Shown: positions 1 to 1,310 of the stretch, piece by piece
How positions within the stretch are numbered: the first letter of the stretch is position 1
How the letters are laid out: every line of letters begins with the position of its first letter
Virus record (IMG/VR): IMGVR_UViG_3300025131_000004
DNA length: 64,000 nucleotides
Direction: 5' to 3' (one strand)
Source: a virus
Lineage: Duplodnaviria; Heunggongvirae; Uroviricota; Caudoviricetes
Notes under the pieces: generated by a model
Told to the model about the DNA's origin: nothing
The model's database searches: none
The model's input: the letters and a program-made list of their open reading frames with translations, nothing else
Made by a program: the position numbers and the translations under genes

Positions 1-829
1 TTAGGTTACGTAGAGTGGCCATGTAAGGCATGTTAGGCTGAACAGCTTCCCATACCTCTGCCGAGTTACCGAATTGAGAGATGACATTCTCCCAGGTAGC
101 ACCAGATGACTTGATCAACTCTAAAGATCTTTTGTCGAGACTGTTTCTCTTTGAAAGCTCCTTGCGAGCAGCGATCAAAGGTACTCCCTCTGGGTTGGAG
201 ACTGTCCCCTCTACCAAGAACTCTCTGACTGCTTCGGATACTGGGTAGTCCTTTCTACGCTCGACCATCTTCAATATATCACCAAGTCCGGACTGGTACT
301 TGACCAGACCATACTCATTGAACTTTGTGAAGGCCTGTGCCAACCCACGCTTGAGTGCGTTGGGGAACGGACGTCCATAGAGATTCTGATAAGCAAGGAA
401 AACCTGGCTTAGTTCATCAGCTCTTTGGATGATCGAAGAACAGTACTGGCGTACCAGCCCCGTACCCTTATATACATTGGAGTGTGCTGCGACTGCCAGA
501 AGAGCACAAGGAGTGGACCTCATGTTTCCTTCAGTCCTTGCCCAATGTGCAATTGCCAACAGGTCACGAGGGTTCTCACCGTCTGCAATCTGCTCTGCCA
601 AAGAAAGAACCTTGACAGCTTGGTCAGTCATTCCTTGTGTGTTTGCAACGACCTTCTTACCAGGCTTTGCCACTGTATAGTAGGTACAATCTCTTTCATT
701 GAAGAAAGAAGAGCCTACCATTGTTAGGAGCTCTGTTGTTGGGTCTGCAACCACAAAGGCTTGTCCGCCTGCACGATTGATTGTCTTTGGGACTTGAGAT
801 ACACGAGTCTGCTTTGTAAACTTTGCCAT
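1..829 (-). CDS. Ro60/TROVE-domain ribonucleoprotein (Rsr-like), N-terminal part; the gene continues past the window start
   Basis: Reverse-strand translation from the ATG at 827-829 gives MAKFTKQTRVSQVPKTINRAGGQAFVVADP...NMPYMATLRNL with no stop down to position 1. The N-terminal (Q-VP--N-AGG-AF) and LRNL motifs are typical of Ro60/Rsr. It is absent from the ORF track because it runs off the window edge. Confidence 0.55.
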   Translation of the reverse strand, partial: MAKFTKQTRVSQVPKTINRAGGQAFVVADPTTELLTMVGSSFFNERDCTYYTVAKPGKKVVANTQGMTDQAVKVLSLAEQIADGENPRDLLAIAHWARTEGNMRSTPCALLAVAAHSNVYKGTGLVRQYCSSIIQRADELSQVFLAYQNLYGRPFPNALKRGLAQAFTKFNEYGLVKYQSGLGDILKMVERRKDYPVSEAVREFLVEGTVSNPEGVPLIAARKELSKRNSLDKRSLELIKSSGATWENVISQFGNSAEVWEAVQPNMPYMATLRNL

Positions 830-905
830 TGTTATTTTCCTTTACTGTCGCAGCACAGTTTGCATGCTGAAGTTGCTGCGAAGAATTATTTCTCTCACCA
901 GACTG

Positions 906-1238
906 TCACCAGTCTTCTTCCATCCCTTCCAGATAATCTGCATCGGGTAGGCTACCAAAGTAACCTTCCGGGAAGAATTTCTTTAGAGTTTCGATTTCTT
1001 CATCGAAAATCTCGACTCGTTCCTTTTTTAGACAAGCTAAAAGTTGCTTTGGGGATTCAAAACAAATGTATTCATTGGTTCCGAAATACCACTCGAAAAA
1101 AGAAAATGTTTTGCAATTCTCTACAACTTCTTCGAGTCGGTTCCACTCTGCTTGTGTATAGATTTGAAATCCATACACATCGAACTCGTCAGCGTAGTTT
1201 TTACAAAACTTTACTAAGTAATTCATAGTGGTAGTCAA
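906..1238 (-). CDS. hypothetical protein (110 aa)
   Basis: ORF track; minus strand like its neighbours; no recognisable motif. Confidence 0.4.
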   Translation of the reverse strand: MTTTMNYLVKFCKNYADEFDVYGFQIYTQAEWNRLEEVVENCKTFSFFEWYFGTNEYICFESPKQLLACLKKERVEIFDEEIETLKKFFPEGYFGSLPDADYLEGMEEDW

Positions 1239-1310
1239 AGGATTTGAACCTTAAACAAGGAGCGTATGAGACTCCTACCCCTCCCAGAGGGTCCGGCTAC
1301 CAGCCGCTAT
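1236..1310 (-). ncRNA. tRNA-like element with a non-canonical anticodon loop
   Basis: On the minus strand there is a T-arm AAGGTTCAAATCCTT, an acceptor pairing GGTAGCC/GACTACC (6 of 7) and a D-arm ACCC..GGGG. The anticodon stem AGGAG/CTCCT encloses a 9-nt loop TCTCATACG. Confidence 0.3.

Follow-up and report, generated by a model that had tools for sequence, protein, structure and literature searches.

A phage Ro60 gene at the end of a tRNA gene array and five candidate Y RNAs among the tRNA genes

Results

A Ro60 gene closes a minus-strand tRNA array

The 64,000 nucleotides analysed here (hereafter the window) come from a virus of the Caudoviricetes, IMG/VR record IMGVR_UViG_3300025131_000004, and have about 33 tRNA genes, every one on the minus strand, from 1.2 to 27 kb (ARAGORN, Rfam). 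At the downstream end of this array stands the 5' part of a gene for Ro60, the protein partner of Y RNAs, which is cut by the window start. Our reading, to which we give a probability of about 0.8, is that this phage combines the tRNA array with the Ro60 gene at the edge, an ordinary CAU tRNA at 1228-1301 and five candidate Y RNAs (U1 to U5). As far as sequence comparison can tell, it is U1-U5, 4.5-17 kb upstream among the tRNA genes, that are the likely Y-RNA partners of Ro60. Coordinates are collected in Table 1.

Minus-strand translation of positions 2-829 gave 276 stop-free codons, running from MAKFTKQT... to ...PYMATLRNL at the window edge. The product matched the Pfam TROVE family (PF05731) with 58.4 bits (E=1e-15, for a curated cutoff of 23), and its terminal YMATLRNL aligned to a YMATLRNLRN block that is conserved in full-length homologues; the LRNL motif to which an earlier note on this DNA had drawn attention lies within that block. 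A search of 5.8 billion proteins found 87 relatives of the fragment, most of them with TROVE and many also with vWA_Ro60. The top relative was 49% identical across 74% of the fragment, and the full-length relatives were 440-480 amino acids long and carried the PF25045 vWA_Ro60 domain. In the PDB, the top match was the Ro60 of Thermus phage phiLo (9KOP/9L5Y, E=1e-9). These homologies confirmed the assignment of the earlier note, namely that the open reading frame (ORF) running off the window start is a phage Ro60/TROVE orthologue. The window's own Ro60 was not found among the protein and contig collections searched, and a megablast of window positions 1-6000 against GenBank phages returned zero matches.

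Five Y-RNA-like units lie among the tRNA genes

The 5' motif AGTACAGA-N7-TACTTC was found exactly five times in the window, as was the 3' motif TYGYYTTTTCTC, all ten on the minus strand, while the chance expectations were 0.01 and 0.13, respectively. The two motifs paired one to one, thereby defining the five units U1-U5, each of which is predicted to follow the same order: a helix joining the two ends, an internal loop, a second helix, the heptamer UUACUUC or AUACUUC, and a variable module. The strands of the internal loop are nearly invariant across the five units (5' NAGUACAGA, 3' UYGYYUUUUCU). A stem, a large conserved internal loop and a further stem make up the layout described for Y RNAs and for phiLo Yrl1/Yrl2 (PMC12135203). 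The terminal helices are AAGCG/CGCUU in U1, UAGAG/CUCUA in U4 and AUACG/CGCAU, with one A.C mismatch, in U3; those of U2 (AGGCG/CGUCU) and U5 (AUACG/CGUAU) were read from the sequence.

YrlA contains a T arm, an acceptor-like stem closed by a loop, and a D arm, in permuted order (PMC4201824; bioRxiv 10.1101/312249, PDB 6CU1). Its Ro-binding region is built by pairing of the 5' and 3' ends, it has no free CCA end, and the equivalent of the anticodon stem leads into this Ro-binding part (PMC4201824; bioRxiv 10.1101/312249). We used a descriptor of the YrlA module (T arm, hairpin, linker of 1-3 nucleotides, D arm with GG), validated on the crystallised Salmonella YrlA core, and obtained three clean modules in the window, all on the minus strand and none within a called tRNA. 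They are the modules of U3, U4 and U5, and each reads as a permuted tRNA mimic, with a T arm, an acceptor-like hairpin of 8 bp closed by a tetraloop, a 2-nucleotide linker and a D arm. U3-U5 resemble YrlA in the permuted module, the T loop (UUCGAAU or UUCAACU), the closed hairpin, the 2-nucleotide linker (UA in U3), the GG of the D arm, the conserved YUAY (UUAC) located 5' of the module and the strand shared with rsr, the Ro60 gene. Pairing of the Levitt type between positions 15 and 48 is a further possible likeness, since a G15:C48-type pair is available to U3 and an A15:U48-type pair to U4, an alternation that has been reported for YrlA (PMC4201824). In its V region, U3 closely resembles the unit that precedes Ro60 in Gordonia phage Rabbitrun.

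The two remaining units, U1 and U2, which are compared here with Salmonella YrlB, keep the stem, the internal loop and the second helix but have a short hairpin or a spacer where the tRNA-like module would be. In mycobacteriophage ET08 and Streptomyces phage BRock, short units of this build flank the YrlA-type ones. The units fit closely between their neighbours. U2 ends a few bases before the CAU tRNA that reaches 5363, whereas U3 fills the gap between tRNA-Tyr (ending at 17097) and tRNA-Asp (starting at 16957), beginning 1 base after the former and stopping 3 bases before the latter. U4 lies between the tRNA at 17685-17754 and tRNA-Ile, which starts at 17540.

A covariance model and helix tests argue for a Y-RNA family

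A covariance model, R1, was trained on eight sequences, none of them from the window: two from BRock, two from Caulobacter phage CcrPW, two from IMG/VR, one from ET08 and the Salmonella core. Its structure annotation is restricted to the T, hairpin and D stems. R1 was run on the whole window with filters off, E-values being taken from a shortened calibration. It matched U3 over its full length with 79.8 bits (E=5e-16) and U4 with 62.0 bits (E=4e-12), followed by U5 (27.5 bits, E=1.4e-4), U1 (22.1 bits, E=0.002) and U2 (20.7 bits, E=0.004), whereas canonical tRNAs gave local T-arm matches only, of 15 bits or less. Units outside the training set that lie directly upstream of other phage Ro60 genes reached 58-65 bits, so U3 and U4 score like true members of the family. 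For U1, U2 and U5, support for the candidate assignment comes more from the motifs and predicted helices than from the R1 score; the similarity of U1 and U2 to YrlB and the short units is limited to the stem and loop motifs, at an R1 score of only 21-22 bits.

The two helices that enclose the module were examined in a model-guided alignment of 19 units from 7 sources, U1, U3 and U4 included. This alignment was fitted to R1, but the helices tested lie outside the structure annotated in R1. For each helix, the duplex energy of a unit's own 5' and 3' segments was compared with that of segments swapped between units. The terminal helix gave -4.74 kcal/mol for own segments against -1.13 kcal/mol for swapped ones, and the second helix, located just 5' of UUACUUC, -4.36 against -2.30 kcal/mol, with a permutation p of about 5e-5 in both cases. 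The aligned sequences thus indicate that both predicted enclosing helices covary across the 19 units.

Rfam scans of the whole window and of positions 1-2500 gave no match to a Y-RNA family. The same database reported only tRNAs when applied to three phage loci with clear YrlA-type units, which makes its negative result uninformative on YrlA. A pattern scan of IMG/VR for AGTACAGANNNNAGNTACTTC returned 32 single matches, none of which was confirmed by R1; with 16 fixed bases and a collection this large, about as many would be expected by chance.

Similar units accompany Ro60 genes in other phages

The module geometry seen in the window recurs, with an 8-bp hairpin, a tetraloop, TA and GCTC...GAGC, immediately upstream of Ro60 genes in BRock (two copies), CcrPW (several), an IMG/VR contig, Rabbitrun and ET08, the last being a phage whose YrlA was aligned in PMC4201824. 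These units share a 5' flank, ...GYGWAGA-N-(A/T)TACTTC, that contains the published conserved YUAY, and a 3' flank of TCGCTTGTTCC or TCGCTTTTTCT. Ro60 was located in or beside tRNA arrays in BRock, in Rabbitrun, in the two closest short contigs and in at least 8 of the 17 metagenomic relatives that were scanned. L006 and L007, the contigs with the closest Ro60 genes, start 93 and 31 nucleotides upstream of the gene, respectively, and are uninformative on upstream RNAs.

The closest long relative is a 102-kb contig, L045, whose Ro60 is 44% identical to that of the window and lies inside an array of 19 tRNAs plus a transfer-messenger RNA (tmRNA). On the strand of this gene, R1 detected five Y-like units 8-10 kb upstream, in a region with tRNA genes; a weaker match was located downstream of Ro60. 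The terminal helices of the L045 units pair (GGACG/CGUCC, GAGCG/CGCUC, GGCUG/CAGCC), and their loop strand, NAGUGAAG, is intermediate between NAGUACAG of the window and UGGCGUAG of other phages. Dispersal of Y units through a tRNA array appears, from these sequences, to be common to the window and L045. A tmRNA was also encoded by relatives that have Ro60 in a tRNA array, at 13493-13841 in L045 and at 5801-6197 in L051.

Weighing the Y-RNA assignment

Several observations weigh against taking U1-U5 as the partners of Ro60. The visible part of Ro60 ends at codon 276, before the vWA/MIDAS half of the protein. The R1 scores of U1, U2 and U5 are modest, and two tandem tRNA junctions gave partial local R1 matches of 30 and 23 bits. 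A Ro-binding motif, GNCGAAN0-1G, has been published for the region near the 5' end of YrlA (Chen et al. 2014, PMC4201824). At the expected place it was found only in U2 (GGCGAAG, 5447-5453); U1 has AGCGAAG there, with GACGAAAG further in, and U3-U5 have CGCAG, AGCAG or CGUAG, then UACAGA. With the motif present in U2, elsewhere in U1 and not in U3-U5, binding of the units to Ro60 is putative. Chen et al. also placed nearly all YrlA genes within 4 kb of rsr (PMC4201824), whereas the five units, though on the rsr strand, are 4.5, 4.7, 16.1, 16.7 and 16.9 kb away from the rsr start codon (829), all beyond that distance. Single-sequence minimum-energy folds of the units were mutually inconsistent, which is why the cognate-versus-swapped duplex tests were used. 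Finally, further Y RNAs may lie downstream of the Ro60 gene.

The setting of the units allows another explanation, namely that they are spacer cassettes of the tRNA array, acting as promoters, terminators or processing signals, or that U3-U5 are circularly permuted tRNA genes or fused remnants of neighbouring tRNAs. In its favour are the position of the units flush between tRNA genes and 4.5-17 kb from Ro60, their U-rich 3' motif, which resembles a terminator tail, and the partial R1 matches at tandem tRNA junctions, which reach 30 bits. Those junction matches are local, however, and in the higher one (6073-6139) the hairpin pairs are mismatched, whereas the full-length R1 matches in the window reach 62-80 bits with the closed hairpin properly paired. 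The covariation of two enclosing helices extends over units from distant phages, and homologous units stand immediately upstream of Ro60 in actinophages and Caulobacter phages, including the published YrlA of ET08. A permuted tRNA gene is further disfavoured because neither a discriminator base nor a CCA end can be accommodated in an 8-bp hairpin with a tetraloop cap. We consider the spacer or tRNA-remnant explanation improbable, and U1-U5 are treated below as candidate Y RNAs.

The element beside Ro60 is a CAU tRNA

The earlier note had flagged a non-standard tRNA-like RNA at 1236-1310 and proposed it as a Y-RNA or YrlA-like partner of Ro60. A tRNA-like RNA is present there, but on the minus strand, within the bounds 1228-1301 and with a loop of 7 nucleotides rather than 9. 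ARAGORN called tRNA-Met(CAU) at 1228-1301 and drew a complete cloverleaf, and the Rfam tRNA model (RF00005) matched 1229-1301 with 32.2 bits (E=1.9e-5), above its gathering score of 29. This tRNA was not reported in the Rfam scans of the whole window and of positions 1-2500, from which it was dropped by the speed filters, a reason for care in using such scans. The AGGAG/CTCCT stem on which the earlier description rested exists on the plus strand at 1257-1275, with 9 bases between its halves. Read as RNA from the minus strand, the anticodon stem is GGAGU/GCUCC, formed by G27-C43, G28-C42, A29-U41, G30-C40 and U31.G39, and it closes a canonical 7-nucleotide loop, CUCAUAC, with U33 and with CAU as the anticodon. 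At the top of this stem, A26-U44 supplies the fifth AGGAG/CTCCT pair, and the apparent 9-nucleotide loop becomes the normal one once U31.G39 is counted.

All four arms are intact, the T loop reads UUCAAAU and the D loop has GG. The acceptor is open, with position 1 paired to 72 (G1-C72) and a discriminator A, and the arms follow the standard order of acceptor, D, anticodon, variable, T and acceptor. Canonical elongator tRNA-Met and tRNA-Ile2 (CAU) share the cloverleaf, the 7-nucleotide loop with U33 and CAU, the T loop, the paired 1-72 and the discriminator A; G8/U14, C6.A67, U49.U65 and the low model score set 1228-1301 apart from them. Nearly all tRNAs have U8 and A14. Here the core bases are G8, U14, G21 and C15/U48 instead of U8, A14, A21 and a 15:48 Levitt pair, and the two stem mismatches are C6.A67 and U49.U65. 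The conserved bases of the tertiary core being absent while every defining arm is still present, this tRNA is best called atypical. Its fold energy was like that of shuffled sequence (z = -0.42).

Could it nonetheless be a tRNA-like Y RNA partnering the adjacent Ro60? It shares the strand of the Ro60 gene and precedes it by 400 nucleotides, it is unusually weak as a tRNA, with its 32.2 bits, G8/U14 and two stem mismatches, and the 3' strand of its acceptor contains UUGACUA, a possible resemblance to human Y1 RNA, in whose 3' strand this string also occurs. YrlA, however, has a permuted arm order and a closed acceptor hairpin (PMC4201824; bioRxiv 10.1101/312249), in contrast to the standard order, open acceptor with discriminator base and canonical 7-nucleotide CAU loop found here. 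The UUACUUC and UCGCUUUUUCU motifs are absent from 1228-1301, the YrlA descriptor did not match it, R1 gave nothing there at E<=10, and a CAU tRNA adjoining Ro60 was not conserved among the relatives scanned. The earlier note had named a normal tRNA call as the result that would decide against its proposal, and such a call was returned by both ARAGORN and Rfam. By this measure the proposal is already largely refuted, and we hold it to be very improbable. What stands of it is the expectation that tRNA-like Y RNAs accompany this Ro60 gene: YrlA-like mimics are predicted on the same strand, but the Y-like units are located at 5.4-5.6 and 17.0-17.9 kb, well outside the interval that had been flagged.

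A second possibility is that 1228-1301 is a decaying tRNA copy no longer working in translation. The loss of U8 and A14, the C6.A67 and U49.U65 mismatches, the z of -0.42 and an Rfam score near the bottom of the window tRNAs (others 29.1 to 68) would fit such decay. Against it stand the intact four arms, T loop, D-loop GG, U33 and 7-nucleotide loop, as well as a score that passes the Rfam threshold and is matched or undercut by further tRNAs of the array (Cys 31.8, Thr(cgt) 29.1). Moreover, only two CAU tRNAs were found, and its counterpart, at 5291-5363 on the minus strand, has, as read from the sequence, an unpaired U1.U72 like bacterial initiators, so 1228-1301 may be needed as elongator Met or Ile2. 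Judged by sequence, 5291-5363 could be the initiator of the pair and 1228-1301 its elongator (or Ile2). We regard the decay of 1228-1301 as unlikely; it is a low-scoring CAU tRNA gene of the array and not a Y RNA.

Other tRNA-like elements and neighbouring genes

Standard tools under-called the tRNA and tRNA-like content of the array. Four extra tRNAs on the minus strand, at 8994-9066, 13407-13479, 17685-17754 and 26140-26219, were found by one detector only or at a relaxed threshold; the calls among them were Asp(gtc), Glu(ctc), Lys(ttt) and one Rfam-only match. Orphan T-loop motifs were seen at 9073-9082, 12295-12304 and 18740-18749. A minus-strand tRNA at 6036-6109 (Rfam 61.2 bits) has the anticodon CUA, which reads UAG (ARAGORN "Pyl"); it might act as an amber suppressor, a hint that stop codons could be reassigned or suppressed in this phage.

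Further tRNA-like elements on the minus strand lie close to the units. The one at 17867-17952, directly 5' of U5, has a 7-bp acceptor stem, a D arm and a T arm with one bulged C, while its "anticodon" arm is a continuous hairpin of 7+4 bp with a tetraloop and no anticodon loop (minimum free energy -32.8 kcal/mol, z = -2.06); it was not called by ARAGORN or Rfam. Between tRNA-Lys(ctt) and tRNA-Tyr, 17178-17270 is a degenerate permuted tRNA-like element, made of a T-like arm with the loop UUUGAAU, a branched hairpin, UA and a D-like arm without GG, with an apparent CAGG/CCUG closure and a local R1 match of 18.2 bits; the flank motifs of the Y units are absent from it. Two sub-threshold elements, at 5456-5535 and 5612-5692, are found immediately 5' of U2 and U1, respectively. 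The former scored 23.5 bits with the Rfam tRNA model (below 29) in a register with anticodon CCA and was called Ala(cgc) by relaxed ARAGORN, and a standard tRNA-Trp was not found elsewhere in the window. The latter has a 10-bp arm with an 11-nucleotide loop.

Between the CAU tRNA and the Ro60 gene, a 106-codon ORF gave no match in a Pfam search. In the interval that separates this ORF from the Ro60 start, about 20 nucleotides upstream of the start codon, a minus-strand hairpin at 848-881 pairs 8 bp, CGCAGCAC/GUGCUGCG, around an inner 3-bp stem, and it could be a terminator or a regulatory stem. Its folding energy was not better than that of shuffled sequence, and R1 was silent on the minus strand, with only a noise match of 6.8 bits on the plus strand. 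Just upstream of the Ro60 region are genes for a BCS1-like AAA ATPase, with BCS1_N, AAA and BCS1 lid domains, and an ATP-dependent DNA ligase; a BCS1-type ATPase in a phage struck us as unusual. The tRNA array also holds several protein genes, among them two paralogues with HAD_SAK_2, the "HAD domain in Swiss Army Knife RNA repair proteins" (Table 1).

Table 1. Features of the Ro60 locus and the tRNA array, in window coordinates
Feature	Position	Strand	Basis or description
Ro60/Rsr (TROVE) gene, 5' part	829..<1	minus	276 codons, ATG at 829-827, cut by window start
ORF, function not assigned, between CAU tRNA and Ro60 gene	906..1226	minus	106 codons, ORF list
tRNA, anticodon CAU (Met type; Ile2 possible)	1228..1301	minus	ARAGORN; Rfam tRNA 1229-1301
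BCS1-like AAA ATPase	2233-3519	minus	Pfam
ATP-dependent DNA ligase	3535-4632	minus	Pfam
U2, Y-RNA-like candidate, YrlB-like, short simple hairpin	5370-5454	minus	R1, motifs, sequence
U1, Y-RNA-like candidate, YrlB-like, no internal module, after tRNA-like element	5538-5609	minus	R1, motif pair, helix tests
Peptide deformylase, in tRNA array	7326-7811		
Cpn10, in tRNA array	16463-16885		
U3, Y-RNA-like candidate, YrlA type	16961-17095	minus	R1 full-length, descriptor
U3 module	16995-17050	minus	T arm GTGGG TTCGAAT CCCAC; hairpin CCCCACAG CATA TCGTGGGG; linker TA; D arm GCTT AGTGGCCTA AAGC
U4, Y-RNA-like candidate, YrlA type	17545-17682	minus	R1, descriptor
U4 module	17579-17632	minus	T arm CTCGG TTCGAAT CCGAG; hairpin TGCTCTGC GAAA GCAGAGTA; linker TG; D arm GTGT AATGGTA GCAT
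U5, Y-RNA-like candidate, YrlA type, no V region	17757-17863	minus	R1, descriptor
U5 module	17784-17837	minus	T arm CTTGG TTCAACT CCGAG; hairpin TTTCTCCT CTAT ATGGGGAA; linker AC; D arm TGCT CATTGGG AGCA
HAD_SAK_2 paralogue, in tRNA array	19072-19575	minus	E=1.7e-25
DHH phosphoesterase, in tRNA array	23618-24619		
HAD_SAK_2 paralogue, in tRNA array	25271-25774	minus	E=3.2e-29

Discussion

From bacteria to humans, Ro60 and Y RNA form conserved particles, whose roles in phages have only begun to be explored. YrlA-like RNAs have been known alongside phage Ro60 genes since 2014, in 22 phages (PMC4201824), and the locus described here is an addition to these published pairs. The window differs from them in the changed loop sequence, the distances of 4.5-17 kb and the multiple copies interleaved with tRNAs. 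Compared with YrlA, the 5' strand of the predicted internal loop is NAGUACAGA, against GUGGCGUAGA in other phage units and GNCGAAN0-1G in the published motif; U3-U5 lie 16-17 kb from rsr, flush between tRNA genes, rather than within 4 kb of it; and the window has three YrlA-type copies together with two short ones.

The closest solved relative of the window's Ro60 is that of phiLo, for which binding between Ro60 and a Y-like RNA and recruitment of the host polynucleotide phosphorylase (PNPase) were shown experimentally in 2025, the complex of Ro60, Yrl and host PNPase damping the nuclease (PMC12135203). This complex offers a tested model for function. The comparison has its differences: in phiLo, the Yrls directly precede the gene and contain a CGAA motif, the similarity between the two proteins is remote (E=1e-9), and the phiLo study makes no mention of YrlA and barely mentions tRNA (PMC12135203).

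One may picture how the candidate Y RNAs would be made and used. U1-U5 would be transcribed together with the tRNAs and released by RNase P cutting at the 5' end of the next tRNA and by 3'-end processing of the preceding one. The ring of the phage Ro60 would bind the stem and internal-loop region of the units, and the tRNA-like module, or the hairpin, could tether or modulate a host factor. PNPase is a known Y-RNA-linked factor in Deinococcus, and the role suggested for the module follows by analogy with the PNPase of Deinococcus and of the phiLo system. The net effect would be to redirect the decay or quality control of structured RNA during infection.

A broader idea, which we put forward tentatively and think more doubtful than probable, concerns the clade made up of the window and L045. 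Y RNAs might travel there as passengers of polycistronic tRNA precursors, from which the maturation of adjoining tRNA ends would excise each unit, and a loop of NAGUACAGA/UYGYYUUUUCU, in place of GNCGAA, might have co-evolved with a divergent Ro60. Along with tRNA-like RNAs devoid of an anticodon (such as 17867-17952) and the two HAD "Swiss Army Knife" genes, they might form a module that acts in RNA surveillance or as a decoy and by which the phage protects or remodels the tRNA pool during infection.

The interest of the locus is moderate and mainly for specialists, the outcome being useful to annotation and not surprising. It corrects an annotation trap, in that proximity to Ro60 does not make a weak tRNA a Y RNA, and it adds a divergent phage Ro60 along with a small candidate Y-RNA family set flush between tRNA genes. 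The candidate Y RNAs lie far outside the 4-kb neighbourhood that is usually searched, and Y-RNA surveys restricted to the surroundings of rsr will miss such cases. Placed as they are among tRNA genes, these candidate Y RNAs may depend for their maturation on the tRNA-processing machinery.

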